A DNA stretch of 62,637 bases, the filler included, from Sphacelaria rigidula (lineage: Eukaryota): the NCBI GenBank assembly GCA_964200075.2. It is 4 parts of 4 records of this genome, joined end to end, with 100 filler letters (N's around TTAATTAATTAA, not from the genome) between each part and the next. Parts side by side here need not be neighbours in the genome. Positions count along the whole stretch, not along the records: positions 47,055 to 62,637 come from CAXNAA020001689.1; 3 more parts are not named here. One strand, 5' to 3'. This document shows positions 4,188-61,481 of the stretch, in pieces. Within the stretch, counting starts at the first letter, position 1. Every line of letters starts with the position of its first letter. Under the pieces are notes generated by a model that saw only the letters and a list, made by a program, of their open reading frames with translations, was not told where the DNA came from and ran no database searches. Both the position numbers and the translations under genes were made by a program.

Positions 4188-5316
4188 TGCTTACAGCTAC
4201 ACGACGATATTCTACTCATGGATTCCACAGGCCTCAGTAGAAAGCTACAACAGAAAACCAATAAAAGGCCCGGAGGGGCATTTAGGAATTAAAACTATCT
4301 CAGTCATTAATTGAATATCTCTCGCTCTCAATCGTACCCTGGACTCCATCTCACGAAAACATTATTAATCTAGGTATCATAGGCCTCTACGATTCAAATT
4401 CGCACCTGACCGCGATCGACTGCATGTGTGTGTGTTGTATTGTCGTCCCATTTATTCTGGGTGCCAGTTTGCACCTTTCGGTATCTGTGGGCGCATCAGC
4501 CGGGGTCACACAGGAGGAGGGTCAACACAGGAGCTTTTTCTTCTCATTATTATTTGTTTTTAGTACCCCACCTTCCTCCTACGGTGGTTGCTTTTATTTT
4601 TTATCGCGAGAGGGGTTCAGCGATCCTTTTCCCTCGCCGACCGTTGTATCGACCCAGGAAAACGTCAGGGCTCAGTTCGGTATTTTTTTGCTTTGGTTCG
4701 TTTCGGTGATTTCACCTAGATAATTCCGGCCTTTTATCGGTCGTATATCTCGCGACCTACGGAGAAAAATGAAGAACCCAGAATACAGTTCGAATCATAC
4801 TCGCAAAGTTTATCTTTCCTGTTTTCACCGAAACGCAAGCCACCAAATAACCGATTCCATGGACGAATCACCAAGTGAAACAAAAACATTACGAAAGGGG
4901 TGATCCAGCCCTTCCAGCCGTTCACTCGCATGCGGGATAGTAATAGAACGTAACATAGTAGCACAACAGAAACAGTATGCCGGCGTCAGGGTATTGTTCC
5001 CAAACACGTTCTAGAGCACGGCCATCTCAACCGTTGTATCCGTTTAATTCGCGCGAGGGAGCTTTTTGGCTTGCTCTTGGGAGATCATCTTCAAAAATGA
5101 GGTTGAACATGAAAATGAGTTTCAACTCCGTACCGTGCAATGTATTCGTGATATAGAGAGTAGAGGATACGATTGAGAGTGAAAAGTGGTTAATTAGTGA
5201 ATTAATCGTTTCGGCTTCGAAAGGCCCCTTTACGAGGCCCGATATGCTTTCTGTAGAAGCTTGCCACTGAGGCCGTTGACATCCCTGAGTAGGATATCGA
5301 CGTGTAGCTGTAAGCA
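4188..5316. mobile_element. Foldback element with diverged ~170-bp TIRs and a nested family A SINE
   Basis: Termini tgcttacagctacacg...cgtgtagctgtaagca. A third copy of the arm lies at ~43684-43860. Confidence 0.7.
4424..4645 (-). mobile_element. SINE family A, partial copy
   Basis: gggcgcatcagccggggtcacacaggaggagggtcaacacagg matches 1850-1890. Confidence 0.75.
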
Positions 5317-14750: not shown

Positions 14751-15200
14751 AAAACCTATACAGTATTCTTGTAGGATTCAAACATACACGGCATGATGAC
14801 ACCCTGACTGACCCAACTTGCTATTCTGCAGTGCGCATCACTGTTGATCTCCAACGCGACCTCAACCCACCAGACCATCCACGTCTGCACTTCATGGAAA
14901 CCGCAGACACTCATTGACAAGCGTTCAACACAGTAATCAAGCATGACGGAGTTAATGTGCCCTTCGTTTCTAGAGCAATCTGTGCAATCCCCTAGGTGCA
15001 CCTGACACGAGAGGGCTTCTCGTGTAGCTCGTTCTGTTTTTGGGTCTTTTCCAGGGACGCTGCACGAACGTGTTAACCATGGAGTCCACCGCGATGAATA
15101 CAAACGCATGCCCTGCTTGTGACGAAAGTGCAAAACACCGGAAAATCCAACCAAGATTACAAAATTTGGTATGTCATAAATGTGGAATCACGCATCGTAC

Positions 15201-15452
15201 CTGTCGAACGGCACCGTAGATAGAAAGTCAACGGCAAACCACCCCCTCAAGTAGCGGGAGGCCATGAGCTGGGGTGAAGTGACCAGAACATGACCGCTCA
15301 TGTAAGCGGTACGAAAGCTAAGGAGAATATCAAACGCGAAGGTGAAATCCGTCACATAGTCCAGTACTAGCCATCCTCCCTCCGCCACGCAGTCGAAGCC
15401 GATTCGAAACGGCACAACGATGACGCTCAATGCGATCAGTATCGCCGTGAAT
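15201..15452 (-). CDS. Voltage-gated/cyclic-nucleotide-binding K+ channel (KCNH/HCN/CNG-like), exon encoding S1-S3; gene is 5'-truncated by the contig end
   Basis: tttcag|A TTC...TTC GAC AG|gtacga. FTAILIALSVIVVPFRIGFD...DILLSFRTAY...RYLRGWFAVDFLSTVPFDR shows the typical CNBD-channel S1-S3 motifs (FRTAY, YLxxWFxxD). Confidence 0.92.
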
Positions 15453-15514
15453 CTGAAACATACGAGACAGGGATGACAACGGGGTCGAGGGCTGTGTGTG
15501 TGTGTGTGTGTGGG

Positions 15515-15585
15515 GATACTCATGATCATGCATGCCATAGTCATCAGACCATTGACCTCGCATCCCTACAAAGCCGGGACGGAGC
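15515..15585 (+). repeat. Interspersed repeat family D at the contig end
   Basis: tactcatgatc..gcatgccatagt..cattgacctcgca.ccctacaaagccg; copies at 23575-23647(-), ~25960-26102(-) and 36943-37040(+). Confidence 0.7.
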
Positions 15586-15685
15586 NNNNNNNNNNNNNNN
15601 NNNNNNNNNNNNNNNNNNNNNNNNNNNNNTTAATTAATTAANNNNNNNNNNNNNNNNNNNNNNNNNNNNNNNNNNNNNNNNNNNN
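15586..15685. other. Artificial contig spacer
   Basis: N44-TTAATTAATTAA-N44 (stop codons in all six frames). Confidence 0.98.
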
Positions 15686-16573
15686 ATCCTCCGGGTTCTC
15701 ATCCTCAATCAAAAGCACCATCCTCAACATAGATGATTGGCTGTTTGAATCACTTGGGAATTTTCGGGCTATTCGCCAAGACTTTTAGGGGCTGCTTGTC
15801 ATGAAGGGGAACACAAACCAGGCGCAGTGATCGTTGCTGTGGTACACGCCTGTTACGCAGCCCGGACCTGAGGCACAAGCATACATCACCTTCCAATCTC
15901 ACCACTGGCTCACGATGGGCAATAAATAGTGTGCACCGTAGCTGGTGATCAAGTATGTCGTTTGTGGCCCCGGGCAAATTTGTTGACAGCTGAATGAGAG
16001 ACACGATGATTCCTGTCAGAGGTGCCCTGCATAGCGCGCCCACAAACAGCCAAGAACTCTATCGTGAACATATTTTGTGTCATACAGACAACCGCCCCTC
16101 TTCCAATACCGAACATTTGGCCGTGAAACAAACAACGTTGTGTGTATAGCCAAGCACGAGCTAGCGCTAGGCGTATCGCGCTTTTGTACTGTGGAGGCAT
16201 TTGTTCATAATTGATCGGGATCGGTTCTTGTAGATGTAAGTCGTTTCAGGTACGGCCGTTGGCATTTATTTCTAGACCCCTTTCCGACTGCGTCCAGTGC
16301 CGAAAAAATCACCGGCCTTCCAAGGAAGTCCGTTTAGTGTTGCCTTGCTCTCTTTTCGCTATCGCCTTCTTTTTCCTGAAATGAGAAATCTTGCGGGTTG
16401 CTCTCGCGGGTTTGCCCCCATTTGCTCACGGCCACTGCGTCTCTTTCCGATGGAGTGTGACGAGGAGCTAGTAGTGTTGGCGCTTAAGTTGAAGATAACC
16501 CGTCACATCGTGGATATAACTTCTACTTTTTTTACAGCACGTATGTTACTACAGGCACACAAAACTACTCACC

Positions 16574-16844
16574 GCAGAGTGATGCTACGGTAGGGGTGCA
16601 CAAATAAATATTTTATGGGGTTAGAATTCTTAGGAGCCCTTTATCTCACGCAAAACGCGACCTATGAAAATATGTGAAAGTACGGCAGGATTACTCCTCT
16701 TATTAATGTGCTGGGGATATCCCGAATGAATTTGCGGACGGGGATATCCTGACCCATATTTTTGTGCATCTTAAATCGTTAAGAGCCCCTGAACTAGATA
16801 TAATTTTGCGAAAAAAGTGCACCCCTACCGTAGCATTGCTCCGC
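16574..16844. mobile_element. MITE with ~28-bp TIRs
   Basis: gcagagtgatgctacggtaggggtgcac ... gtgcacccctaccgtagcattgctccgc. Confidence 0.75.
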
Positions 16845-17449
16845 AAGCCGTGGTAGGAAGGGCTGTCAAGGTGAAAATTTCATTCGCAGTTGAGTCCGTA
16901 CCTGACTCGTTGTATGACGGAAACTCGTTTGCTTTAGTTTCGGACTGATTCCTCACTCTTCACTCGTATTGTAACTCAAGTCCTACGAGTAACCGGTTTT
17001 CGGAAATGACTCGTGTATTAAACGACCCACACAAAATGATTTTTCGGTGAATGACCCATCCGACTTCAGTCATATTTCACGTCATTTTTCGAAAGTAACT
17101 TGTTGTCATGAGTCGAGTGAGACCTGTCTTTGTATCCTTCCTCGGAAATGATTCGTCGTATAAAGCCAGTAGAACTCGTCTTCATTTTTAGGGAATGAAC
17201 CGGCGGAAAGAATGACGATACTCGGACGTTACCTTGCAATAGTGCACGAGCCAGGTGTTATGTTCTTGCGGTAATTTTTTTGTCGTATACTCTACACCAT
17301 GCAGGCTCGAGTTGCATGTCGACTCGATGGTTAACATGGTCGAAATTTGACGACTTTTCGGTACCACGCAAGAGGGGAAATCTATCACGATTCCTGACGC
17401 ATTGTCACGATCATCACGATCCAAAGAAAAAAAGAAGGCAGCGACAGCC

Positions 17450-18620
17450 CCATCACTAGCGCCCACCTGCCGCGCAACGAACCCAGCAATGCTGAGCTAC
17501 ACCTGGCACAGCCGCATCGACCATATACACTACTACTTGTCAAGAGAGAATTTGGGCGGCGTCGAGCCACTAACGAGTGACTGCGAGTCATTCGACGTAT
17601 TATGTGCACATCGTTCGTGAGCTCAGCACAAGTGTTGTCGACAATGAACCCGGAAGAGCTACGGCAAACACAAATTCTTGAATTTGGACCTCACCTTTAG
17701 CACCTACCAGGCCCAAAGAAGCCCCGATCTCAAATCCAGACAGCATTATTAATACCGCACTACTTCGAAGAAGTTGGACTGCTATTCCGATGGTATATTT
17801 ACCCGAGAAAGTGTGAAGGTGTCGTACTTTTCCTGAACAACTGGTAGAGTAGTACGTGCCACAGGCGTCAATCGACGATACTCTACAGTAATTGATTGTG
17901 TTTTGCATTCATCAAAACCATGCTTTGTTGAACGGACACACAACATATGCGTAGAGTACCAACACATCGCTCGCGGTAGCCAGTCTTTCGTGGGGAAATA
18001 GTGTTCTGCCCAATATATTTTCGAATTCAGTAAATGCAGCACGAAAATATGTTCGTCGACTGATATCAGTCTACGCTCTAATATTAAAATTGACAGCACT
18101 ACGCGAAACTTCCTCGCGCGCTCCCCCCGTCCACCGCACTCGAACCCTGACATACAGGGTGTGGGATGACTTCGACGTGGTCAGCACGACTCATTTAACG
18201 ACACTATATTGCTCTTGACGATAAGCTATCGAAGTTTTTTCAGGGTTGCCATCAGTGTGGAACATGATTGATATGTCTATTGAAAGTGAACGTTTACGCG
18301 CTCAGGTAAGGTGCGAGGCGGTAGACGCTGGTCCGGTGCCCCTCAGCCAGCGCCTGCAATTTGGCGTATTTCCTTCACGCGTTTCATTTACAGATACCAC
18401 ACCACCCTATTTGTTGACCTTGAGCCTATATCCTCCTGCGCCCTCGGCATGACAACACGTGGCCTAAGCGGCACATTCGACGAAAACGTATTCTATGTAC
18501 ATCACCGTGTCCGTTTATACGGACGTGTCGTTGGTTCGATGCGGTCAGCGTTGACGCCGCAGATATACTGCTTGCCGACCCCACCGAACCGGGGATAACC
18601 TCTTGCGACAACAATGCCAA
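17450..18620 (+). mobile_element. Degenerate LINE remnant (APE endonuclease and RT fragments)
   Basis: YTWHSRIDHI...SD resembles the APE C-terminal motif; YHTTLFVDLE resembles the RT motif LFVDLxKAFD; many stops and frameshifts. Confidence 0.5.
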
Positions 18621-18635
18621 TAAGCACCGAAACGC

Positions 18636-18817
18636 TCACTCGAACAGCTCGATGAACTGCATGTCCAGTGGCTTCGCCGACGGACCCGCAAAACGTGCGT
18701 ACTCGTCGAATATGGCGCTCAACGACCAGTTCTGTCTACGTCGAAGGCACCCCACGGCGCACCCCGTCTGAGTCTTGCCGCTGAGACAATGCACCAGGAT
18801 TGGGCGATTTCGATGGT
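18636..18817 (-). CDS. PFA-DSP/SIW14-like phosphatase, last exon (not in the ORF track)
   Basis: cggcag|AC CAT... gives DHRNRPILVHCLSGKTQTGCAVGCLRRRQNWSLSAIFDEYARFAGPSAKPLDMQFIELFE*. The spliced CDS is 684 nt (227 aa). Confidence 0.92.
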
Positions 18818-19917
18818 CTGCCGCGCGAGAGAGGAAGAAACGGACGGACTCAAATTAGCGGGGAGACTGGGAAGCTACATGGAAAAGAAGCTCGACAGGC
18901 GTAGAGTTACGAAGGTTGGTTTGATTGATTGATTGATTGATTGTCGCACTTTAACCGATCCCCCAGGGGTTCCGCCGTGGTCTGATTATAGACGTACTCA
19001 AGAAAAAAAGGTGTAACCACGAAACAACTGCAGGATATGCCCCTTGTGCTAGCTGTAGACTGATGCTTGCCTGGGAAAGATGTTACGTGCATGCAGTCGG
19101 TTGAGGTGGACAGGACCCTTCAAGTTCTAATTAATGTGAGATTTTTGAACGTGTTACGACCACCACCTTTGTGACTGCACTGCGACACAACCTGTTCAAC
19201 CTATCCTGCTGATTCATGTACTACTACGCGCCAAGGATGGAGTGTAGTGTGCACCAAGTAGTGCCAGCATTGCTTCGCTTCAAGCACCGACCCCAAGCCC
19301 CCCTATGCGTACCTATGCTGCAGCTCTTCAGTATGGCAACCGTACCTCGGCCACTATACGACGGTCTGCTTTTGAAATTCAATCGTTGTCAAGATGAACG
19401 CTGCCGACATAACCTGAGCCCACCTTCCACCTAGCGTAGAGCTGCCGACCCACATCTGCAACCGCTAAAATGTGAAAAGGGAACAACACTACAGCACTGC
19501 ATATGTTCCAATTCTTTCTGTAACGCCCTGAGCATAGGTTCGTTCACCTCACATGGCTACATCAACGATCAAGGGGATGCATCCTACTCTACAACGCCAT
19601 CACAACGTAAAAAACAGATCGCCTCCCGTGGATGCGACAATGGCCCCAGGGTACTTGGATAAAAGTTAATATCTGGCGTTGACCGCGTGGGCCATGCATC
19701 CCGTGAAACTGAGTATGCAGGCTATACCTGTCAGCTAATTTTAGCCACCGTTCTCGCTGTTTTTCTCGCAACCCTGCATACCAGGGTAGATCACCTGAAT
19801 CCCACTCATTTTGCGAATGAAAATGATGCCGAGTCAACAGATGGCCCACCCTGATGGTCAAAAGCCTTCTATGGAATAGAGTTGGTTCCTGTTTCCTCAG
19901 ATCAAGCTGATTCTCAC

Positions 19918-31270: not shown

Positions 31271-31370
31271 NNNNNNNNNNNNNNNNNNNNNNNNNNNNNN
31301 NNNNNNNNNNNNNNTTAATTAATTAANNNNNNNNNNNNNNNNNNNNNNNNNNNNNNNNNNNNNNNNNNNN
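31271..31370. other. Artificial contig spacer
   Basis: N44-TTAATTAATTAA-N44. Confidence 0.98.
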
Positions 31371-38394: not shown

Positions 38395-38784
38395 TGTGTG
38401 TGTTGTGTGATGTCATCCCATGTATCCTGGACGCCAGTTTTCACCTTCCGGTACATGTGGGCGGATCATCCAGAATCACACAGGAGGAAGGTCACCCACA
38501 GGATATACATATATATATATATATATATATTTATTTATTTTCTCAGTGACCCACCCTCCTTCTGCGGTGCTTACCCTACTTTCTATCGCGAGAAGGTTTC
38601 GGTGGTCCCTGTCCCCCGTCGACCGTGAAGTTGAATTTTGCGTATTCATGGCATCGTTGTTCTCCATTTTTTGGCATGATGCGAGACAAAAAAATCCCAG
38701 ATCATGTGACTTCACCGAGATTCGAATCCACGTCCACCCGCCGGAGGGTTTCGAGGTCTCCAACTGAGCGACTGGAGCGACCAG
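38395..38784 (-). mobile_element. SINE family A, full-length copy
   Basis: aaaaaatcccagatc...gagattcgaatccacg...ggtttcgaggtctccaactgagc, homologous to 2057-2146. Confidence 0.8.
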
Positions 38785-46020: not shown

Positions 46021-46401
46021 CCGCACGATAGCCCGATCTCCCGAACCCGCGGTCACGGACGTCGGTTTGCCTTTCCAGTACCATCGCTGCGTGTTTCTTA
46101 CATGAGATAGAAGCGCTTACTGAGCGACTTCTTCTCAGCCTCAAAACAACAGCATACAAAAAGTGAGAGAGGCGTGAAAAAAATAATCGAGCGAAAAAAC
46201 TCCCCCCGAGTTGGTCAGGGCGTGGTAAAACAAACTCATCGCATCTGCTAATCCAGTAAAGGAACTTGAGAGACGTAGCACGACATGAATAAAAAAGTAT
46301 ACCCCAGGGGAATTCATGGATGCCAAGTTAAAGACGACAACCCCAGGTATCCACGAAGAAACCCACAGCAATTTGTTTAGGAGGACGGCAGAGGCACACA
46401 T

Positions 46402-46488
46402 ATCCCGTCCGCTCTGTGAAGTTAAGCGGCGTCGGGCCAGGCTAGTACTACGGTGGGGGACCACGTGGGAAGCCCTGGTGCTGTTCCT
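46402..46488 (+). rRNA. 5S rRNA, 5'-truncated copy (lacks the first ~31 nt)
   Basis: atcccgtccgctctgtgaagttaagcggcgtcgggccaggctagtactacggtgggggaccacgtgggaagccctggtgctgttcct, followed by a T-run. Confidence 0.92.
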
Positions 46489-46492
46489 TTTT
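46488..46492 (+). terminator. RNA polymerase III oligo-T terminator of the 5S copy
   Basis: TTTTT immediately at the 5S 3' end. Confidence 0.7.
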
Positions 46493-46870: not shown

Positions 46871-46954
46871 AGGATCGGCCATACCACGTCGATAGCACCA
46901 CATCCCGTCCGCTCTGTGAAGTTAAGCGGCGTCGGGCCAGGCTAGTACTACGGT
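46871..46954 (+). rRNA. 5S rRNA gene, 3' end cut by the contig end
   Basis: aggatcggccataccacgtcgatagcaccacatcccgtccgctctgtgaagttaagc..., a brown-algal-type 5S sequence. Confidence 0.95.
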
Positions 46955-47054
46955 NNNNNNNNNNNNNNNNNNNNNNNNNNNNNNNNNNNNNNNNNNNNTT
47001 AATTAATTAANNNNNNNNNNNNNNNNNNNNNNNNNNNNNNNNNNNNNNNNNNNN
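46955..47054. other. Artificial contig spacer
   Basis: N44-TTAATTAATTAA-N44. Confidence 0.98.
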
Positions 47055-47992
47055 ACGACGACGGCCAGAATCAACCCCAGGCCCCCCCCCCCCCCCCACG
47101 CGCGCGCGCGCCCCTTTTTCACTGGAATTTACTACTCCAATCCTTTTCGTCGACATGAATAGCGGTATATCAGTGAAACAGAGGGACCTGGATTTCAATG
47201 TGTCAATGGGTTGCGCGCAAATCTCATGTCGATATTTCCGGTACCAACTCGACATATTGGCCAGCACGTGATCACATTGGCACATGTTTGCAGTCACATA
47301 GTTACGCATACAGACTTACAGTAAAGACAACAGAGTGTTTCGGCTATTCACTTTTGATTGGCGAGGAATGGAAAACATCGACGTTCATCAGGTTTGTTTC
47401 GTATCGGGATATACATGCTCATAAAAGTATGTCAAATGCCGCATGTTTTGTTCGTGAGTTTTCGGAAGAGCCAGTACAAGAACCGGAAAGAGAACGAGTG
47501 CAAAAGCGGAGACGCGAGTTTCGCACCATCTCAGCGGATCTCGAAACTGAGTGGCTTCACGTAATTGCCCCGACTCATCGATCAGAGATCAGAAACGTAT
47601 TGCCAGCTTGTCCTGGCTCAGTGTCGTTCAGACAATATGGTCATCTACCACGATATGGGTCTCTTGGTCGACCCAGCTTGTGCGCTGCGGGCATTGTCGT
47701 CATCCCTGTTCACTCGGTCCGGTTGTGAGTACGAGGCTCGACTCTTGGCGGAGCGATGAAGACGCGAAGACACTCCACACACTAGGATCATCGCACGAGT
47801 CGGTAATGGGAAGCTCGACTGTGCAGCAAATTGCAAGTGCGTTGAAATATGAGTTGGTTAGTGAGCCGTCCGCGGTCACTGGTTTTGCCAATGAGCTAGC
47901 TATATAGCGCCATTGTTCCAAGACCACGAGGACGCGTGTTGCCCCCTACTGTTCGCCAAGAAGGGTGTCATCATGTTTGCGTCCTTATAAAG

Positions 47993-48067
47993 GTCTACCA
48001 GAAACGTGCTCATGGTTCAGCTGTCGATCTTTCGACCACAAACGTGCACAAATGTAGAAGATTCAAG
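47993..48067 (+). CDS. Putative DEG/ENaC-like membrane protein, candidate exon
   Basis: taaag|G TCT...TCA AG|gtttca. STRNVLMVQLSIFRPQTCTNVEDS; phase fits the next exon. Confidence 0.45.
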
Positions 48068-48186
48068 GTTTCACCTCTGGCGCAAACGTTCGCCCAAGTA
48101 TGCTGCGTGCTGTCGAATGCATCAAACTTGGAACCCTCGCCTCTCCGACCTTCGCGCGTTCATCTCCCCCCCTGCTTGCATTGCAG

Positions 48187-48301
48187 TGAGAGTGTTTACC
48201 TGTACTTGAACGATACGGAAACTAATGAGGTGTCCACGGGAATTCAGGTGTCGTATACCTGCGTCACCAGCGAATCGAGCAGCCATTTCTTCAACTACGT
48301 G
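48187..48301 (+). CDS. Putative DEG/ENaC-like membrane protein, exon
   Basis: ttgcag|T GAG...GTG|gtgagt. ESVYLYLNDTETNEVSTGIQVSYTCVTSESSSHFFNYV. Confidence 0.8.
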
Positions 48302-49340
48302 GTGAGTGCCCGGCCTAGTATTCGCTCCTTGCTACACACCCATGCTTGCTGTTCACGTTCAGGTCGGTAGGCATTTGTTGACAGCATGGCGCTCGGCCGG
48401 AGGACGTACTGCGCAATCGGCTCAGCTGTCCCGGTTGACGAGAGGGGTATATGTTTCATACACGACGATTCGACTTCACGGTCGATGAGGGAAAGATACC
48501 GCTGCACCCCTTTCGCGTTAATAAATGGAGGCAACCACCGCAGGAGGAAGGTGGAGAGCTAAAACAAACAAAAAAGAAAAAAAACTCCCGTGTTGGCCTT
48601 CCATCTGTGTGACCCCGGCTGGTGCGCCCACATGTACCGAAAGGTGTATACCGGCGTCCAACACACACGTTATATATGCCGTATACCTTGATACAGTACC
48701 GAGTGCTGAACAAGATGATACTCGGTGAGGGTAGCTGGCGGGACTTCGAAACACACGGAATTCTGCATGAAGGGGGGTTGTGCGATGAAAACAATAGGGT
48801 CTCGCCAGATCTGCACGGGAGGTATATTGGGTGGTTTGGTTGACGCTGGAGCACGAAGCGTCAACTAGATAACGGTGTGATGGAAGGAACGGTGTTGTGG
48901 AGTGCATGCTCGTAGCTCCGGTCTCGAAACCATACCCGTCATGGTTGATGTTGAGTACATCTCACGGTTGTAAACTAGGCAGCGATAGGTCATACATTCG
49001 ACACGAACATTCGACTCGGAACATGACGACCCTGACTGAATTTCTACAATCGAAAGAATAGTGGAAGACGTCACGGGAAGATCCTACATGAACAGCTGGC
49101 GTGCAGCATGAATAATGTAGCAAGATATTTTGTTCAAGGCTGACGCTTGGAGCCTAACCTTACGCAGTCGTGAAACATTTTCACAAGGTTGGTATGGAGT
49201 TGGGTTTTTCATTACTCTCGAACTATGCGTCAACGTGCAAGGGCTGATTCTCACCCGTTCGGTATACTTGGATCTAACTCCCCAACCGTTTCGAATTGTC
49301 CTCAATTTACTGCGTTGGGTCTTGACCGCGCCTCTGCCAG

Positions 49341-49433
49341 GGAATGGGAGTAACAGAAGAAGTGAAACTGGACAAGACAAGGAAAGCCAGCTACAAAGCA
49401 TTGTCGACTTCATCTGCAATCTACAAAGATAAC
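49341..49433 (+). CDS. Putative DEG/ENaC-like membrane protein, exon
   Basis: tgccag|GGA...AAC|gtgagc, 93 nt, phase 0-0. GMGVTEEVKLDKTRKASYKALSTSSAIYKDN. Confidence 0.8.
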
Positions 49434-49872
49434 GTGAGCTCTTCGTGATCATGCTTCAGGTGCAAAAAATGTGTTTCCGTAGCGCACAGGTTAAAACTTC
49501 TCCGTATGTACCTCTGAATGTCCACGGTATTTGCAGCGCAGAATCATGCGCACGTTCGACGTAGCATGGTGCAGTAGCTTCAGATCATTCACAATTGCAT
49601 GGCTACATTTACTTCAGGGTCGTCCCCGCATGTGGTACACCATCTCAGGTCAGTACTGTACCATGTGCCGTTGATGGTTCCGGCCGTCGGCTGAAGCTTG
49701 GTTGTTACAGGGTTCGGCCAATAGCGATGTCGGCTCGACTAGCAGTGCACGAGATGATACTACAACAATTCATCTCAACTAGCACGATGACTGCGTAGGT
49801 GTGCTCGACCCCGCGGCACTCTTTGCGCTGAATGTGTAGCTCGCTGTCCCACCGTCGATATGTTGTATTCAG

Positions 49873-50017
49873 AGGACTGCCAACATTACGGAGATAGAAG
49901 CGCCATATGCCTACTTGGCGATCAACATAGCACAGGAGCCGGACTCTTGGGAGACTGTCACGGAAGTGAATCCTCTTGAGATAGCGGAGATCTTCGGTAA
50001 CGTCGGAGGGTTCTGGG
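49873..50017 (+). CDS. Putative DEG/ENaC-like membrane protein, exon with pre-TM2 and the start of TM2
   Basis: attcag|AGG...TGG G|gtgaga. PYAYLAINIAQEPDSWETVTEVNPLEIAEIFGNVGGFW. Confidence 0.82.
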
Positions 50018-51037
50018 GTGAGACGAACCTGAAGCAGTGGTACCTGTGTTTTGACAATTTCTCGTGTCGAATATTAGCAGGACTTACAGCTAGGTACATG
50101 TGGGCAGGTACTTATCGTCGATGATGTCTTGTTGGTACAACAACGTAGACTGTTCCCAGTAGCTCTTAGATAATCATGGAGTGCATTGCTGTCGGTACAT
50201 CAGGTTAACGTTACTTCTTACCACAGCGACTAATGCTAGATGAATTGTTATCGGTGATATCTTCTTTGCGTTGCGACAAGTACGTGACGGGAAAACGCAC
50301 AGTAATCTGCAGGTAGGCCGGCATTCAGAACGATAGGGGGACAACACTGGCGTATGTTCATATATGCCCGATCATGAGCATTTGGGTGCCATGGAAAGTT
50401 ATAACATGTGGTTGTGCTTGAACGTATCATAGGCGACACTACTACTCCTGAGGCAGTCTGCGCACTAGCTCTCCAAGGACCATATTGACGGTTTTAAGTT
50501 TTGAAGTCCTGAGAACGGCCTATCTCGTACGCGCACGGACTCGCGATTGACACTCGTGTCAGTACGTATTCGCCTTCACAACACCATCTGTTCGCGCGAA
50601 GGTTCCGCAGGAGTCGAAACATGTTCGACGTCATGAGCGCTTGATAATTAGCTTTTGTCCTCCCACGATCTCTAACCTTTCCCCACAATATCTATCCATG
50701 AATAATGAGCGCGTATAGATAAGCTCCGTGTGATGTCCCTGCTGCTACGACATATCCACACCGACCGATGCATCACTGCTGTACCATGATAAAGCTCCGT
50801 ACGTATCGACGAGGCCAAACGCAAAACTTGTCATGTCTTCTTCCAAAATGTTCCGCTCGGTTCGACTGTCGTTTCAGATTAAACGCTGGACAAGCTTCGG
50901 CTTGCATTTTGCTAGTTATGCCATGAATGTCGTCTTGATGATAAACACTTCAGTAGTTGTCCGTGTACGATAATTTTCCATGCGGTGTGTGTGCCCCAAT
51001 CGACTCCGTGCGCCTGCTATACTCGTTACACGTACAG

Positions 51038-51258
51038 ACCTCCTGATGATCTTCTGGCCCATATTTTTTGTAGCGACCACGCGGCCAGAGCCATCTCTCA
51101 AGCCCCGAAATTTCAAGAAGTCCGTCACTAAAGTGGCGGAGAGCGCGATGAACGCAACTCGCAGACGGCCGCCAATTTCAGCGACAACCCTATCTGAGAC
51201 AGACGAGGAGCGGCCCAGCTGGGACGACCCAGCCCCTTCCTTTCGCCGTTCTAAGCAG
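51038..51258 (+). CDS. Putative DEG/ENaC-like membrane protein, exon with the TM2 end and cytoplasmic tail
   Basis: gtacag|AC CTC, phase 1 match. DLLMIFWPIFFVA followed by a basic tail. It may splice at CAG|gtaccg or read through to the stop at 51345. Confidence 0.78.
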
Positions 51259-51867
51259 GTACCGACTCAAGTTCAGTTGTCTGTGGGTCGTCGTTGTGTC
51301 GCGCAAAAATTAGAGATACATGTTGCTGTGAAGGAGGTCAATTGAGACACCTGTAGCTACTTTGAAACGATACGATTGGGGTGTGTACGGTACCAGACTG
51401 GGCGGAGGAAGTCATGAACGGAATGCTCGTCTAGACCAAGATCACATATTGGGCGTGCGTATGTGTATATTCTCCCTACACAAGCACGTCACGCATACTG
51501 AACGCCATGTGGCGATCGCAATGCACGAAGTAAGTACGAGCTGGGCCAGCCAAAGTGGGGCGGTTTTCTCGCTCAGGCGACGCACGGCGTGATATCAGGA
51601 GTTCGACTCTGTGGCTATGACAGAAGCGTTTTATGACCAAAACAAACAACATCCCGTGGGCAGCGAAGAAAAGAAGAATTAAAAGAGAGGAAGTTATGGG
51701 GATTGGAAATTTCAGCACAAACAAGATAATGTCATGAGTCCAGGAAAAAAATGAGAATCTGCAGCTGCTCACGGGATGTATCTTTTGCTTGGGTGCAGAA
51801 GGTCTCCGTGAAATTTCAGCTCGAGAGTCGTCGAATTGGGCCGTGCGTGCAACGTTTCCGGTGACGC

Positions 51868-51945
51868 TGTTGCACCCTTATAACTCAAGTGATGCGAGAC
51901 TCCGAGATCATGAGTTCGAATCCCGACAGATTGTCGTTTTTTTCC
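51868..51945 (+). repeat. tRNA-like SINE head fragment
   Basis: Box B gagttcgaatccc followed by a T-run; no complete cloverleaf. Confidence 0.45.
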
Positions 51946-52004
51946 GTCCGTCGTCAGGGTCACGTATGATGCAGAACTTATTTTTCATATTTTTCTTCAT
52001 TTAG

Positions 52005-55000
52005 CGGCGGTGCCGTGTGTTACCAGGTTTGTCTGCACTACACAGTGATATGCTTCCATCGGGTTCGTTCGGGAAACTGGCAAAGCTGTGGTGTGAGCAA
52101 CGTTTAGCCGTCTTTAAGCTGGCCCAGCTCGTACTATGTTGCTTTGGGGAGTCAGTGACGCCGATCAAGGCCTAACGCACTCGATGGCAACGATCAACCC
52201 ACACTTTTGATGTTTGTAGTCTGTCGTTTTTTGCTATGACAATTCAAACACGTCACACCCGCCTCGGCCGCCGATTGTCCGCATGCATCCACTGACCACG
52301 TGATGTTGTTTAGGGCCATGGCGACGTGCTGATTCGGTTATTTGACGACCACGGGTTTGTCGCCGTCATCAACGGCGCTTGCGTGAAGAAATTCCTTACG
52401 TCGACGTTCAGCGCAAAGTGTCTCAAAGTAGGGGCCCTGGAACCTTGTCTACAGAAGCTACTCCCTCCGTACACATATGTGATCGTCGTCTCACGGGGGA
52501 GGACGACAAAGTCGATTGCCAAGGCGGTTGCTGCGCGGTGTAAGGCCGGCGGCGATGAGGTTGACTCCTTCGAGAAGAAGCCAATAGCGGTCAAGGTGCG
52601 GCATATATTGCCTTGGTGTTCGTGAATACCGTATTTGTGTGTGTGGAATGCCTCCTCGTTACTTTTGCTCTGGTGTAAATGTTTTGTCTCCCGTCGAAAC
52701 AGTTCAAGATTGTTCCCACGTACGACCAATACCGAGGTGTACTTGGCCCTTTTGAGACTGGAGATCTCCGGGCTGGCGATTTCGGACTGAAGATTTGCAT
52801 CCAAGTATGGTTCGTTCGTTCCTAGTCTTGATCCCACACTTTCGCCTGACTGCGGGATTGTCAGACCTGCAGAAGTGAAAGGTTCAGGAATGGTGCGTAT
52901 GATTGATCACACCGCAGTTTCTCTTACGTGCATGCAATTTCAACGTGCGTCAACATAGAAAACTACGAGCACAAAGTTGTCAGCTGTACACCATCACTCG
53001 ATACACTTCCCGAAGGGTATACCAACCAACACCCAACAAGAGCGCGTTACGCACCCTGTAAAGTAGCAGTGCAGGTTTGCTGCCTTGTGGTATCCTGGTA
53101 ATGTGCCGCGGGCATGAGGTGGCAAGGTACAAATTGCCTCATGAGTGGCTTGTTTTTGCCGTGTGATTCGAAGCCTTGCATCATTGTGCAACCTCCATCA
53201 AGGATTTTTGTCTTTTGTGGTTGTTGTTGCTGCTGTTGCCTTGATATTTAAAAGCGTCCCCGTCTCTTCGACGGTCGCCCGATGATGCAAAACTGTGATA
53301 TCATCGATGGCTCCTCTATTACGGTCTTGAATTAATGAAACATCCATCATGAAACTGGATGTATTTATTGTGGATGTGGATGTTCATCATTGACATCCGT
53401 GTGGGGTATAGACTACACCACCACCGGCATGTGCGTACCTTGGGAACATTTGGCTTCCCACTACTGTGTTCGCCGTCAAAGGCAAGGATCGCTTTCACCC
53501 AGCGCGTGCGAAACCCCACGTGACGTGCAGCACGAGAAGCAGTTTCCATTGATGAACAAGTTCGGTCGACACCGAAATTGGCTGTTGAGTTGGCGGATGT
53601 TACCGCTGCTTTGGCGGAGAAAAGGGTGCGGTGCAGCTTTTCACTACTCATATTTCTACGTGTACCAAAAAGATGAAACATGTACGGCAGAACGTGCATG
53701 GGGCGCGTTACAAGTTCAGAAACCGTGCTCCCGGAAGTGGTCATCGTTACAGTCCTTCATGGGTGAAATACAACAGTGTGGCCCGTTCTGTCTTTTTACA
53801 TGTTCGTTTAAATTGCGCATGGCATGACATACGACGTGGCCCTGAGGATCAAACACAAGCGCGAAGTGCTAGAGTGGGCCATTGAAAATGCTGTACCTCG
53901 AGAATTCGCAGTAGGAGACTGTTTGCTGATACTGATGATATTACGACATGAATACAGTTGATAACACGTTTCCCGGAGCATGCTATAATTGGATGAAACT
54001 GGCTCACAACACCGAGTTATCATTGTTCGTGTCCACAGTACGTATGCTTGTGGACTTTCCTCGCCCTTCCTGCGTTTACGTAGTTGCACTCAGTCCTTTC
54101 TTTTTGAATACTTTTTACTTTCGGAGTATTGAAATTTCGAGGTGTGTGTTACTCGTGGATAGCCAAGAAGCGTTTCAAGAGGGTTGGCAATCGTGCGTGA
54201 GAAGGCAGGTATATTTTGAGCACATTCTCGGACTCTACTCGCTCCAAAGCTACCGGCTTCGGACAACGATGATACCAGGGATCGTTATTTATGTGCCTAA
54301 CCAGTGCACCTACTAACGCATCGCGCCTTTCGATTATATGCAACCAGGCGAAGAGACCACGACTCTCAATCCTGCAGTCGCAGACGTTGAGCGCTGCGAG
54401 CTACGTTACCGGTATCGCGGATATCATGGGCGAATCGGACGTGGATTTGGGGGAGGTAAGACGACCGTTTGTTGTGGGTTGCGTTCATATTCGCGCAGCT
54501 ACTCAGCGAATACATCCTGCCTGAAGTAGTCTACACATGATATCGTATGTTGACGTTCTCACATATGTTCATCGTGCGGGAGAAATTCGCCGTAGCCTCT
54601 CGTGAGTCCGACAAATGTGGGGACAAGTACAAGTGTTGCGGAATTTGACAAGCTTGGTTTCAGTGAAGCACGCCCGAGGCAGTACGATCGAGGGTCATGT
54701 ACACACAGGTTGGGACATGCACGCGTTTCCATTGTAATTCCGCGGCGCCTTTCTGCCTGTTCAGGAAATCGTCTCCCTTCCCTCGTGGATATCTGTGTGG
54801 GTCCTGCACCCTTCTGTACTGAGTGTGTAGTTTTCTGCCATGCAATTCTACTGCGGAACGAACATCTGTGATCGATATCAGATCATGGGTCAGCGTTGCT
54901 GAAACACCTCACCACCACTGAACCGTATAACATACGTTTTTCGGAAGCTGTCAGTGGGCTTCTAGCGCTCAGTTCAACAGATCGCCCTCGTATTTGTTCC

Positions 55001-56600
55001 TCTGTCCCACTTTCCGCATGCCCTACGTGCTCGTGCTTGTTATCCGTGTAAAGGCGAAACAGGTGGAGTTCCATTGCCCAACAATACCACGCAACGATAC
55101 TGAGGTGCGGAGTACAGCACTGTACGATAATAGCTGGATTGACCGATGCGCACTTGACTGAAACACCTTCATTTCCCCGGCGTCAAACTTCTCCTGTGCA
55201 TCATCCTATTTGATGTGCCATATGTGATGCTAAGCAAGCTGCTAAGTGGCCGCTGCTCACCTTCGCAAGCAGAAATATGGGCGTGGATACACACGCGAAT
55301 AGATGGTGTTGTTGCGAGTGTTTCTTGTTCTATTTCAACCGTGGTTGGGCGAAGCTGTGGGGACGAACGCAAAGGTTGGAACGTTTTTCCGGCGTCAACG
55401 TTGTGTAAAGTCGATCGAGTTTCGTCGACTACAGTGTGCGGCGTGAAAACATTATCAGCACGGGAAGCACTTGGTTTCTGGCGACGACCGTAGACAACTT
55501 GCCCTGGGCGCGTATTGTTCCCTCTCATGCTTCTCCCTATCGTCACCTGATGTATGCCTGTTGTATGCGCTTGACGGCTTCTCTTCCCGCAGCCAATGGA
55601 TGGCCGCATGCTGGTCCCAAGCAGGTCGCAACCGTCTCTTTCAGACATGCCAATCAGGCGTTCCCCGGTCGGCCCGGCTGCTTCACCAGACAGAGACGAA
55701 CATTTTTTAGAGTGTGACCAAAGCCCTGTGTAGTGGGACCATGCAATTTGGTTTTCTGTCTCTGAGTCATCCCCCGTGTTTGATTCGGTCGGCGGTTATG
55801 GGATTTTTTATTTCTCGGTGCTTCAAGAATTGAGGTGCCACTGTTGTGTTGTTCACAACTTTCCTTGCTCGCCCAGCTACGCGCGTGAGCTGTCGGTCCT
55901 CAGCCGGCGTGAGGCAGCGGAAAACGTCTATGTGAAGCATTCGAGGAACGTCAATCATTTGAGCTAGCTTGTGGATTCGTCGGTTCATGCCCATAGATGG
56001 GGCTTCCTCGCAGAGTGCAAATCTGTCAATTGTGTGTGTGTGCACGTATGGATCACCCGTGTCTTGAGCTTGCCACCATTCAGGTCACTCCAGCGGCACA
56101 TGGTCCACACTTCCTGTGGTGATATGCCGAATACCTGTAGAAAATTTATTGGTGATGTTGGTGATGTTGGTAATGTATTTATTTTTGGGTACTCATGTGA
56201 ATGTACTTTCACAACGCCTGGTGCAGTACATAATGATCGGCCGAGAGATGTACGTGATATTTTATACAAGTGTCCACGAGGTGATGGTCGTAACCCACAC
56301 TATATGCAGCTGCCGCCAGCCGTGTGTTCGTGAACCTTTATCATATTACCGGTTTGTGTATCATTTTAACTTTCTTCAATTATTTTTGTTGGCCAGTGGG
56401 CAAACGGTTGAGATCCTCTCTGTGGTGCAAGTGTTTTATGTCACTGCCCATGAGAACGGGACGTCGAGGAAAAAGTGTTGGTGTAGGGGTTTGGTACCTT
56501 GTGTAGGGATTCAGTACCTTCACACAGGTATCATATTGGGTAGACCTGTAGTGGAACTGGATATGGGGGGAACTGTGTCGACGTGAGAATGTGGTGAATT
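52005..56600 (+). pseudogene. Unidentified, partly decayed multi-exon coding sequence (possibly an intron-containing transposon)
   Basis: A series of AG..GT-bounded coding-like blocks (approx. 52314-52595, 52703-52804, 54348-54455, 55063-55104, 56397-56582) interspersed with blocks containing stops. The 5' part is homologous to 24665-25055. Confidence 0.45.
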
Positions 56601-59049
56601 CACACGTACGTTTTGTTGTATAGATATGCGAGTGTGACAAGCGTCAATGGTGGGTCCGCGGGGCGAAGATAACTACGCACGAATCGTTCGCACCATGCTA
56701 TTTTTCACACTCCCGTGCGTCTAGTGCATGTACGCATTCGCGATACATGGTTATGTCTTGTGACACGTCCAGATGTGTACACGGACGCGATTTTTGCCAC
56801 GTTGAGTGTTTTTGTGTTAGTGTCCAGACGCTGAGTAAGGGTGAGTGGAGGGAAGAAGAATCCAAGGCAATGGGTGCACATTTATGTAAATGGTGTCCCA
56901 TTGGGCCAAGTGGAGGGGCCTGCGATTGTGTTCTGCTGCAAAGTTGCGACGATGTTCTGCTGGTTGGGCGTTTATGGTAACGTGGGTTGCGATAATCACC
57001 GTCTTTAGAGTGTTCTGAACATGATACGGTGTCGGTTCTCGCGTGTGAGACGCCAAGATAGGGGAATCAATAGCACTGAGTGTTTAGCTGTTCCCCTCAA
57101 GGCGACGGAGTGGCATCACGCTTTTTTTTTTTACGTGCTTGTTTAATTCAAGGGTGCACGAAGAAGTCCTTTTTCCAAACTTAGGTAGCCCTCTGGGGCC
57201 TTGATGGTGGGGGGTGGGGGGTAAGCCAAATCTGAGCACAGAAGTGTGTGTGTGCGTGTGTGTATGAGTGTTTTTTTACCTTTGTTTGAAAAGCCCAAGC
57301 TATCGGTTTGTTATTCCATGTGAACCACCCGAGGAGATAGATGTCGTCTTCATGTTTGGACGTGTACCCTTAGCTTGTCGGACAGTTGTATACTTTCTTG
57401 AGGACAGCGATAGCTCCTACTGCCATACGGTTACCATAAATGCCTGCCAATGATCACCCTCTGATCTGGCGGGAACTGAATCGTCCCGTCGCGCAGCCGA
57501 TTCAAATCGCGTGGTGATAGCTTTTAACCGGATGTCATATTAAGTATGAATAACTAGTTGTCCCCGTCGTCGTAAGGTCGCCAGAGTCTGGACGTTCCCC
57601 TCCACGCTGTTGGAAGTCGTAAAGCTCAATGAAGACTGTGACTAACCTTTCAGTCATCGGGGGGGGGGGGTTATGTGGCTAGGCCTCGTAGCTTCCCCGT
57701 CACAAGTTGGCCCACAAGTTGGCCGTGACCAGTCAACTGGATTACCCGTGAGTTGAGTAGCTGATACACGATCAAGACATTCCCTTGGCAAGTGAGTGAC
57801 ATATGTGGTGAGGCGAGTTAGGCCCCATGCTTTTCATTGTAAGCACTGAAACGCACAAACGTGCGAAAACTGGGTCAACATGGTCGATCTATGACATCAT
57901 TGCTAGCGATTTTGAGGCGAGGGGCTTGCTTGGCATCGTTGGGAGTTTGAACAAGGAATGATCGAGGCTGTAAAATGTGAGAAACTGTATGGTAATACTG
58001 ATACGCAAGGGTTATCTACTAACACGGTTAGCGATCGAGCCGTCAACACTGTCCGTTTTCCCACCCATATCACTACCCTTGCCACCCCTCGCTTCAACAA
58101 CCGCGCGTTCACTTCCCAGTTGTGAAACCAACTTGCGCGGTTGCGAAACCAACGTGAGGTCCTCCGGAGAGACGGCGCCTCCCGTTTGTAGGACTTGATC
58201 TATTTCTCGCGCAACGGACTTTCTTTGTCATGGGCGTATCCACGAATAGGGGGGGGGGGGCTCAGATATAGATTGTGCAGGGGAAGACTGTAGAAGACTG
58301 TGTAGATAGTGCAGTTGTACGAGCCGATGAAGAGTGTCGACGACGGGCCGCCCGTCAAACTTTGCGTGATGTCCATCTGAGTACCAGTTGTCATGCAAGA
58401 CCACAAGTCTGCACAGCAGGAGCATCACGCGGTTTTTTCATTTGTTTTGCACCAAACCCGTACCCAATCAAACTGCTGCTGTAGTTGAACCCCCTCATCC
58501 CCTAACCATGGAGGAGAGATTCACTAAGTCGGATTGCTGTCTTCGCGCGTTGGGGCTTGTGGTTGTTACTCGCACCTCGACTGCCACCGCTGAAGTGCAT
58601 GCAGCAATTTCAAAGTCGTGTCAACTATAGTAGCATGAGCCTGATGATTCTGCCTTCATCATGGATCAACACGTAGCAATTCTAGACCCGGGTGCGACCT
58701 ATTGTCCTGCTTTTTCTGTGCAAAGCGAACTTGGTCACGTCACCATAAGGCGGCTGAAACAGTCATCCCTTTCCCCCCCCGCTACAAGTCCTGTATAAAC
58801 GACTTCACTCGTCGGCCATTTTTTTATGTGCTTTACTTGTGTTCATTTTTTTTTTTTGTTACGACTTGGTCTGCCATGTCGTTCTGTTCGCCCTTTTTCT
58901 TTTCTTTTCTGTTCCTTCTTTCCTTCAGAGCGTGTTTCAGTTTCGTTTCTCTTGGGTACATCTATCATGAGACCGCGGCTGGACCCCAGGGGGGTACGGT
59001 GGAGTGCGACAATCAACCAATCAATCAAACTCGTACAAATCTAACTCCA

Positions 59050-61320
59050 AGCCGCGTACAGCAATTGATAGATATGTTGGAAAAAAATTATGGGCATGAG
59101 CATAAACGAAGAACGTCCGAGCACTTCACATGGCGAGCAACCACGTCGTGTCCTTCAGAGGCACAACAGTGGAAACAAGAGCGCAAACCTTGCCAGCCAG
59201 TGGTCAGGCTACCCGGCGGCCCTCGGTACAAGCAAATCAACTCTGGCCATCTCCTTCAACTACGGGAACCGTCGAACATCGACAAGCCCACGGAAGCCGA
59301 GGATCTCTTGCCGTTCGCTCCTACGAACGAACCAGCTGCTTCGTTCGACAGCAGCGGGCTATTCGAAGCGTTCGGGGGGGTCGACAACAACAAGGCTGGG
59401 GAGTCGGCTCTCATTGTGGAAAAAGAGCTAGTGGGAAGAGAGTCGGACTTCGGGGCAAAACCAAAAGCATGCTTACGGCGATCAGTGGGGCGCTGCTCAT
59501 CCTAGCCCGTATATTTACGATAGAGGCAGCAATAGATCATGTCTGGACGGCGTTCGGTAGGTTGTTGTATTACTGAGTAACGTTAGACAACAATTGGCGG
59601 CATTACCAACGGCGAGGATGGGTTGACTCGTGCGGCAGAACCGGCCGTAGGAGAGTAGAACAACGGTAAACAGTACCGTCAGTGTGATGTGAACAGTGGA
59701 ACGCCGGGACACTACTTCGAGGATACCATCATTCCTCCATTTTGGGACATTTCCCTCAACTGTCAAGAGCTGGCTGTACCGCGGAAGACCACAACTGCAG
59801 GGATACATATACTGGCGGGGGTCGGCCAGGGACTGCTGTGCGAGAGCATTATCCACGGCGAAGCGCTGCAACGCCTGATCCAGATCTCGTGATTGATGCT
59901 TGGGGCGAATCATGTTCTCTACGAAGCAAGTTACGCGCAACGGCGTTGTGCTCATTTTCGACGTAGATAATCCATGGCTGGAGACGAACATGCAATTTCA
60001 CGTCCCGCTCCAGGGAGCGACCTCTGCTTATTTTCGTTAGAACTCATCGACATTAGCGACGCGCCTGGACTGACAGTGCAAGCTGCAGCAACCGCAGCAC
60101 TATGAAATCGGCGGATGGGGCATCTTGACCCCAAAATCTTGAACCTGTTCACAGAAGGTGGATGGCAATGTGATAAACCTCGTCGAAACCATACCGGGCT
60201 GTGACGTATGCACCTTTGGGAACCGTCACCAACTGCTCCACCCGAAGACAGTCGATCACAAGGTCCGGTCCTATTCGCATTTCACGCGGTCATCACAGAG
60301 TTGATGGGAAATTTCGCGCTATGATGACGACGGTCCCACTTTAGCTCATCGCTGTGATGGTGATGACAATACGAGTTTAGAGCTACGGCGGGTGGGACTC
60401 TACACCCAATGCACTGCTACCGGACGTCGTGCACCAGATGTACGAAACATTTTTCCGTCGTGGAGTATACCTACACAACGGCCAGCGTCTCAAAGTGCTC
60501 GGCGGGAAAGGAAGACAAAACCATTCCGAACAAGTTCAATGAGGCCATGATTCGGCTCGCAAAGGAACACTGGAGAATGATCACGAACAAGGAAGTGTAA
60601 GACTCAAAGCGAACAACGTGAGCACTATTACGTCAGCTACCTCTGTCCCAACTGGAAAAAGAGATGGTTGGTTGTCGATCAGTCTTTAAAAAGAAACGAG
60701 ATGAGCTCCTTTAAGATTCATCGTGATGTACAAGAGATAAGCCCCCGGCGTGGACGGCGGCAGCACGTTCGCTTCCGTCTTCAGGATTCGGAGCATCTGC
60801 ATGGTGTCGGCAATAGCGACGGAGCACACTCGATAGTGCTGGCAGCTGGACTACAACACCGCCTTTTCCACACACCGAAGTTAAGGAGGAAGTGTAGGTA
60901 AAAATGGCGCCCGGATACGAGGAACTTGACGCCACCGCATTCGGATGGTGATGTCACAGAAGCCTCTACGGCATTCGCCAAGGCCCAGAGTGCTGATGGG
61001 TCATGGTCCACAAAAATTTAACGAAGATCGGTTGCAGGAAACCCGAAGTCGAACCCCTGCGTATACATCTACCCGAAAGCGACGATATTTTTATACCCCC
61101 CTTGTACATGGATGATGATTCACTGCTCCGAAAATATCTCAAAGTGCGCAAAACAATTTAGCGCAAACTCACGGGAAGTTTATCGATGACCGGTATAAAA
61201 AAAGTGTCCTTGGCGCTCCGTATGAATGGTACCTGTGACCGCGAGAAGAAGACGGTCACTATCAACCAGATGAATTATACCAAGGCTCTGCTGGAGCTAA
61301 ACAGGATGGCGAAATCATGA
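59050..61320 (+). mobile_element. Degenerate Ty1/copia LTR retrotransposon (integrase to RT region)
   Basis: IPNKFNEAM...W....KE, TFASVFRIRSICMVSAIA, KMAPGYE, SLYGIRQ-like and LYMDD (~61105) motifs in copia order; many stops and frameshifts; no LTRs seen. Confidence 0.88.
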
Positions 61321-61481
61321 CAACTGAAAACACAACGCCCTCCGGGGGGAGGGGGGAGGGGGAAGGGGGAAGGGGGGGGGGGGGGTCCGTGTCCGAACCT
61401 TCTCTCCGCGATCCCCCCTGGAGGGGGAACTGCACACCACCCGACACNNNNNNNNNNGGGTAGCCGGGATGCTCGGAGCGG

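Follow-up and report, generated by a model that had tools for sequence, protein, structure and literature searches.

A spliced brown-algal gene predicted to encode a divergent two-transmembrane protein of the ENaC/ASIC/PAC fold

Introduction

Does a brown alga encode a channel built like the trimeric sodium and proton-activated channels of animals, and if so, to which of the known families does it belong? The question is raised by a locus of Sphacelaria rigidula in the 62,637-nucleotide stretch of DNA analysed here (the window), where an original prediction made from the sequence had proposed five exons of a DEG/ENaC-superfamily-like channel with two transmembrane (TM) segments. An older review describes DEG/ENaC channels as a metazoan novelty (10.1101/116715). 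They are now reported outside animals from a few unicellular species, with a single stramenopile species found in one survey (PMC10507113), and the non-animal homologs in print are those of Cafeteria and Tunicaraptor (PMC10507113; PMC9822975). The Cafeteria homologs place the superfamily in stramenopiles (PMC10507113). The proton-activated channel PAC (ASOR, TMEM206) is described as conserved in vertebrates and as a structural look-alike of DEG/ENaC without discernible sequence homology to it (PMC7904269).

Results

The gene is spliced and extends beyond the predicted exons

The gene is real and spliced. Assembled contigs from four public runs (X1, X2, X3 and X8, from two studies, with an RNA status that is tool-guessed or unknown and in no case recorded as RNA) were aligned to positions 47055-61447, and in all four runs they join eight exons across seven GT-AG introns, with no letter differing from the genome in the pieces listed. 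Four exons of the original prediction and four further 3' exons thus make up one spliced gene in 4/4 runs. The prediction had stopped at 51258 and missed the last four exons; the spliced reading frame runs for 384 codons up to a stop at 55731-55733.

The first exon on the contig, 48187-48301 (plus strand, as are all those that follow), encodes ectodomain beta-strands with one invariant Cys and matches positions 173-211 of a family profile built from 27 relatives (E 2.5e-13); the profile matches the four confirmed exons at E 5.6e-21 to 1.6e-7. The next, 49341-49433, has joints on both sides and encodes an ectodomain beta-hairpin (profile 212-245, E 1.6e-7). Exon 49873-50017 carries the NIT glycosylation sequon (49882-49890), the last two ectodomain strands and the upper part of TM2 with GNVGG at 49996-50010 (profile 242-298, E 5.6e-21), and was recovered over 144 letters with 0 differences in 4/4 runs. 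Exon 51038-51258 encodes the lower part of TM2 and a basic cytoplasmic tail (profile 288-369, E 4.8e-17). All four have AG/GT ends, and the joints 48301>49341, 49433>49873 and 50017>51038 are each GT..AG and each spanned by one contig per run in X1, X2, X3 and X8. The last of these, present in 4/4 runs, splits the codon of the putative pore Asp (50017 + 51038-51039). The predicted succession of a beta-strand-like region, NIT sequon, GNVGG motif at the start of TM2, hydrophobic stretch and basic tail is thus borne out by the translation, all of it being encoded by the in-frame splice of these four exons.

Further 3', exon 52314-52595, joined in the contigs, encodes a domain of about 90 residues, predicted to be alpha/beta and to lie on the cytoplasmic side. 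Exon 54348-54455, also joined, encodes a conserved C-terminal helix (67% to paralog C21742; it matches 453-494 of the relative P0063), and 55054-55104 is short and coding, with joints on both sides. The last exon, 55593-57670, is coding to the TAG at 55731-55733 and is followed by roughly 2 kb interpreted as 3′ UTR, as indicated by the joint 55104>55593, contigs covering 55591-57670 and the translation.

The joining of exons on which the original prediction depended is therefore present in contigs of 4/4 runs, and four of its five phase-compatible exons stand (48187, 49341, 49873 and 51038). The first, 47993-48097 (plus strand), does not: as far as tested it is intron sequence and not part of the gene. 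The family profile has no match at 47993, the segment lacks the invariant W-Y-P-G, C, W and H of the family exon expected at that position, and no joint into 48187 occurs among the joints listed for the four runs. Any of three donors would keep it in frame, and contig cover in the bin 47535-48014 has a depth of 0 to 1.64, where missing cover alone proves nothing.

The 5′ half most likely lies on another contig

The contig that carries the gene (C1689) starts at 47055. Because the window is a concatenation of separate, unrelated contigs, nearly equal in length and joined by spacers, it lacks the gene's 5′ half; the intron preceding the 48187 exon extends past the contig start. Upstream window DNA was considered as the 5′ half and ruled out, being part of other contigs, and a tblastx search with three paralog contigs detected no upstream exon within the window. 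The contigs that join the exons carry about 670-840 extra upstream letters which, from record positions, cannot be placed in 47055-61447. Of the four contigs on which the exon that follows TM1 is present, three have a 48187 exon of their own and the fourth, C10018, has none; the 48187 exon has three close paralog copies at 74-76%. On the family profile, C10018 accounts for positions 3-149, TM1 among them, and the window gene for 173-369, with no overlap. Pairing by exclusion, the 5′ half with TM1 is most likely on C10018. For the exon covering positions 150-172 there are three close paralog copies and one weak match, none of them for this gene, and because only three close copies were found this gene's own copy is probably unassembled. 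The N-terminal TM1 expected of such a channel is present in full-length relatives and on this probable 5′ contig.

The gene belongs to a brown-algal family

The TM2 exon recurs on at least six contigs of this genome, which indicates a multigene family. Searching with the post-TM1 exon of a paralog yielded 79 proteins with E<=0.001, of which P0003 and P0050 are repeat artefacts and were dropped, and a family profile search gave 25 matches. All organism-named matches are brown algae (Ectocarpus, Laminaria, Scytosiphon, Ascophyllum and, by file label, Undaria); two other EukProt rows and the Logan and ENA rows name no organism, and ten distant matches give no source; no named fungal or ciliate protein appeared in HMMER searches of the family. 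The prediction of a poorly characterised stramenopile family accords with these matches and with the literature: our searches, whose coverage left subscription papers largely outside, found no paper on the family, and it goes unmentioned in the accessible parts of PMC7935092 and PMC12485921 and is absent from those of the PMC10507113 survey. The closest full-length relative, P0063 (547 aa), shares 54% identity with the window product across 326 residues, and the two group in a tree at 84/85, which is below the starred level.

The two profiles that the original prediction had proposed to search gave a divided answer. At E<=0.1, 14/27 family members match Pfam ASC (best 4.5e-7). The matched segment is limited to TM1 and the first strands, at positions 15-106 of the 455 in the profile, and P0062 clears the curated ASC cutoff at 26.1 vs 23.6 bits, the sole pass among 12 proteins scored. 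The TMEM206 profile PF15122, in contrast, matches 0/27 members at E<=0.1. Pfam gave no match on the four window exons and P0001 (0/5), the two tail exons (0/2), P0063 or three C10018 exons, and a PDB sequence search with the family profile gave 0 matches. By language-model features in the ESM Atlas, the nearest entries are unnamed two-TM clusters of Mucoromycota (0.93-0.94, 210-214 shared features), followed by the ciliate Y80K_N (PF27811) at 0.87 and a TMEM206 cluster at 0.86. These are leads that come without alignment or E-value, and the Mucoromycota and ciliate proteins are themselves uncharacterised.

The predicted fold is that of ENaC, ASIC and PAC

AlphaFold2 was run on the relative P0063 with 27 sequences, rather than on the product of the window gene. 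The model has TM1 at 9-42, a strand-rich core of 12 elements and TM2 at 274-303, with a mean pLDDT of 57 and the tail unresolved. All Foldseek matches listed to rank 20 are PAC/ASOR (E 1.1e-9 to 1.5e-7), and BRTNaC1, ASIC1a and PDPNaC1 come after them. In VIA-align against 48,161 chains, DEG/ENaC chains hold ranks 1-5: PDPNaC1 scores Z 13.4 (rmsd 4.5, 225 aligned), ENaC 12.0 (3.8, 189), ASIC1 11.8 (3.5, 179) and ASIC5 11.7 (4.3, 216), with PAC at 11.3 (5.6, 231). Overall, channels score Z 9.6-13.4 with 160-255 residues aligned from TM1 to TM2, at 8-16% identity to the solved channels. The first non-channel is Erv41p (Z 6.8, rmsd 4.3, 143 aligned), which has part of its lumenal fold in common with the model, and P2X is absent among the matches listed by both programs. 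Because Foldseek and VIA disagree on the nearer family, the model does not decide between PAC and ASIC/ENaC. That the protein belongs to the ENaC/ASIC/PAC structural superfamily by its predicted fold is well supported, and the fold proposed for this divergent two-TM protein, related to ASIC and PAC, is upheld by both searches.

A three-copy model of P0063 residues 1-320 (pLDDT 53-56) scored 0.33, just over the mark, vs 0.00 for the best control, although this score may reflect memory because similar trimers have already been solved. The mark is reached by 21/30 solved pairs and 0/23 single chains, and among eukaryotes by 17/29 and 0/30. Runs share at least 58% of contacts, the confident ones falling at residues 43-50 and at TM2 279-290, where 286 and 289 each contact the equivalent residue of another copy.

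A compact acidic ectodomain and a distinct pore

Motifs were counted in 17 relatives that passed three filters for near-full length, and pore positions in the 26 sequences that were long enough among 28 with the TM2 motif. In the near-full-length set, an N-terminus of about 13 residues precedes TM1, and the ectodomain has 205-244 residues, a net charge of -19 to -34, and six Cys in 15/17 proteins or eight in 2/17; in the P0063 model, helices of the ectodomain do not exceed 4 residues. After TM1 there is a Y-P-D-x-x-x-C motif, comparable to F-P-x-x-T-x-C of DEG/ENaC and lying in the N-terminal part to which the ASC signal is confined. TM2 is of only moderate hydrophobicity (the highest Kyte-Doolittle mean over 19 residues is 1.66), with a Pro ten residues past the crossing Gly, and conservation within the family peaks on its Gly-Gly-x-x-Asp face.

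HG and the GAS belt are described as conserved DEG/ENaC features (PMC7308080), and the DEG/ENaC channel PDPNaC1 is reported to lack HG and not to use GAS as its filter (PMC12714832). In the algal family, His-Gly before TM1 occurs in 0/17 near-full-length relatives, and 16/17 lack GxS after GNxGG, the lone positive (P0106) being an intron read-through. The window product, as originally noted, has no GxS after GNVGG, and I-F-W (51049-51057) stands in the place of the ASIC-type G-A-S.

We anchored the pore register on the second Gly of GNxGG (position 0), using published spacing and the weak trimer model instead of a residue-by-residue structural alignment. The pore positions of PDPNaC1 (D372, G375, G378 and G382; PMC12714832) and of pufferfish PAC (I310, G313, M316 and K320; PMC7904269) are equally spaced, and their algal counterparts are Asn, Gly, Asp and Ile. 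Asp is found at +3 in 24/26 sequences, both exceptions being intron read-through, a count that overstates independence because most of the sequences are close Ectocarpus copies. Glu is found at -7 in 25/26. The PAC filter is a Lys (K319/K320) seven residues past the crossing Gly (PMC7904269; PMC8299559). In a register taken from spacing, 0/26 algal sequences have Lys or Arg at +7, where we find I 16, M 5, L 3 and E 2, the last from read-through. In human PAC, L315D is reported to make the channel permeable to cations and anions, and K319E to make it cation-selective (PMC7904269). Because the algal Asp at +3 corresponds to the L315D site, the algal pore may be cation-permeable and weakly selective.

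Discussion

The family sits between DEG/ENaC and PAC. With PAC (PF15122; 8H8D, 7JI3, 8FBL) it shares two TM segments and a compact beta-sandwich of similar size, without the peripheral helical domains of ASIC; PAC supplies the top Foldseek matches, and in the trimer model the beta1 strands meet between subunits as they are described to do in PAC (PMC7904269). Unlike PAC, its TM2 lacks the filter Lys and has an Asp one turn above that site, identity is 8-13%, and PF15122 finds no match. With DEG/ENaC (PF00858; ASIC1, ASIC5/BASIC, ENaC, FaNaC, the short centipede channels PDPNaC1 9JF7 and BRTNaC1) it shares the core fold, a weak, repeated ASC match over TM1 and the P-x-x-x-x-C motif, and a G-x-x-G-G start to TM2, which in ASIC is D-I-G-G. 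Unlike DEG/ENaC, it has no HG loop, GxS belt or Cys-rich helical thumb or finger, its ectodomain is much shorter, Asp replaces Gly at +3, and one subgroup has an extra cytoplasmic domain. The homologs of Cafeteria roenbergensis and Tunicaraptor unikontum, which come from unicellular species, are set apart by their description as clustering by sequence with the animal channels (PMC10507113). Because defining features of both are missing, we place the algal proteins in the superfamily by fold but in neither DEG/ENaC nor PAC; the original label of DEG/ENaC-superfamily-like holds for the fold and the weak ASC signal, and not for membership of DEG/ENaC itself.

Our preferred reading, to which we give a probability of a little under 60%, is that the gene product serves as one subunit of a trimer, homomeric or heteromeric, and that this channel of the ENaC/ASIC/PAC superfamily is cation-permeable and weakly selective. 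A common fold does not by itself demonstrate function. From the models and from analogy with solved channels, such a subunit would run from a short N-terminus through TM1, a glycosylated, acidic beta-sandwich ectodomain of about 220-240 residues, which has six Cys but lacks a helical thumb or finger, and TM2 to a cytoplasmic tail that, in the subgroup of this gene, includes the additional domain of about 90 residues. Three TM2 helices would cross at the second Gly of GNxGG, and the pore would be lined by Asn (-3), Gly (0) and Asp (+3), with bulky residues at +7 to +10 in place of the GAS belt. The Asp ring, with Glu at -7 forming a second acidic ring, might admit cations with weak selectivity, possibly including Ca2+. 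Since neither the ASIC/ENaC nor the PAC ion filter is present, this may be a cation channel of another kind. Gating is the least certain step: the strongly acidic ectodomain suggests that the channel, as in PAC and ASIC, responds to protons or divalent ions on the outside, a suggestion that we hold at about one in three.

Other readings share some of this evidence. The protein might be a non-conducting two-TM receptor or cargo adaptor with an Erv41/Erv46-like beta-sandwich that signals through its cytoplasmic tail, for which one could cite the Erv41p match, the modest hydropathy of TM2, and the long, variable tails with an extra folded domain in one subgroup. We consider this unlikely, as the channels align from TM1 to TM2 with Z scores well above that of Erv41p, and the strongest conservation falls on the very TM2 face that a pore would be expected to preserve. 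More improbable still seems an anion channel that, like PAC, is activated by protons and sits in the plasma membrane or in endosomes: the uniform PAC/ASOR identity of the Foldseek matches listed to rank 20, the PAC-sized thumbless ectodomain, the basic residues after TM2 and, as a lead only, the TMEM206 cluster in the ESM Atlas all point that way, but the counts at +7 and with PF15122 are both nil, and the acidic residue at +3 falls where L315D abolishes the anion selectivity of PAC (PMC7904269).

Nor do we put greater weight on a degenerate but true DEG/ENaC channel, Na+-preferring and amiloride-sensitive, and tied by descent or by lateral transfer to the channels of Cafeteria and Tunicaraptor. 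ASC is the only Pfam family to match over the channel core, the first five VIA ranks are DEG/ENaC chains, G-N-x-G-G resembles the ASIC D-I-G-G, and PDPNaC1 offers a precedent for a channel with no HG and a non-GAS filter (PMC12714832). Yet HG is missing from every near-full-length relative and GxS from all properly spliced ones (0/16), 15/17 have just six Cys, no helical thumb or finger is seen, the ASC match stays within its limited N-terminal span, and the published BLAST survey lists one stramenopile species only (PMC10507113).

The preferred reading, that of a weakly selective cation-permeable trimer, provides a concrete candidate channel family for brown-algal ionic signalling, and the family bears on how a shared scaffold comes to pass cations in one protein and anions in another. 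Its combination of PAC size, a weak ASC signal and a third pore type makes it an intermediate with which shared ENaC/PAC ancestry can be tested. We find it tempting, if rather doubtful, to speculate further that it represents a third functional branch with a minimal PAC-sized ectodomain and an Asp-ring, Ca2+-permeable pore. Such a branch would lie near the ancestor shared by ENaC/ASIC and PAC, and would have been retained by fungi, ciliates and stramenopiles, with an expansion in brown algae. Algal fertilisation involves Na+/Ca2+ currents, and a third branch, if real, could carry them or take part in osmotic or mechanical signalling.

On the same supposition, the cytoplasmic domain encoded by 52314-52595 would be a ligand-sensing module unseen on other channels of this fold. 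It is predicted to be a small alpha/beta domain (best model pLDDT 77, with only 1/5 models above 62), and its structure matches are not convincing, the best being E 0.09 in Foldseek and Z 5.7 in VIA (eIF1, ArgR C-terminal, ACT-like). ILEI was considered as its identity and rejected, at 0.85 in the ESM Atlas, below the threshold there, and absent among the fold matches listed. The domain is restricted to one subgroup, P0063 alone having it among 109 proteins compared, and it is conserved at 60-82% identity in six other sequences, namely two paralogs of this genome, P0063 and three more proteins.

Run contigs and relatives of the gene

After its stop codon, the gene for the predicted two-TM protein has some 2 kb read as a long 3' UTR (55734-57670), which is covered by contigs in all four public runs (X1, X2, X3 and X8), and additional contig pieces reach to about 58800. 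Over 49897-49960, within the TM2 exon (49873-50017), X8 holds a second contig with a depth of 167, six other letters and a joint of its own, which is absent or rare in X1-X3; it probably comes from a paralog whose expression shows in the second study. Distant paralogs, matching at 38-39% over the TM2 exon, lie in the same genome (L007:2434-2553, L008:4459-4572 and L009:6232-6333); they keep GNIGG and form a putative second subfamily. In two EukProt relatives, P0095 and P0099, a FUT8-like fucosyltransferase domain precedes the family part. Because the usual family N-terminus follows internally, after this domain, the most likely explanation is that each gene model has been merged with a neighbouring gene.

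Repeats and make-up of the window

Two intronic stretches of the gene are high-copy repeats: 48560-48680, with a summed contig depth of ~15,000-19,000 and further copies near 1800-1950, 4440-4610 and 38410-38640, and 51535-52133, with a summed depth of ~800-1,600. Two 5S rRNA-like copies (46378-46490 and 46871-46950), spaced ~490 bases apart, score 49.6 and 46.4 bits, both above the Rfam gathering score; their 5' part is divergent, and we read them as pseudogenes or 5S-derived SINEs. In the spacers (15586-15685, 31271-31370 and 46955-47054) a 12-base linker is flanked by 44 N on either side; the linker was read in the third spacer, at 46999-47010. The contigs that they separate have near-equal lengths, and neighbours on opposite sides of a spacer are unrelated.
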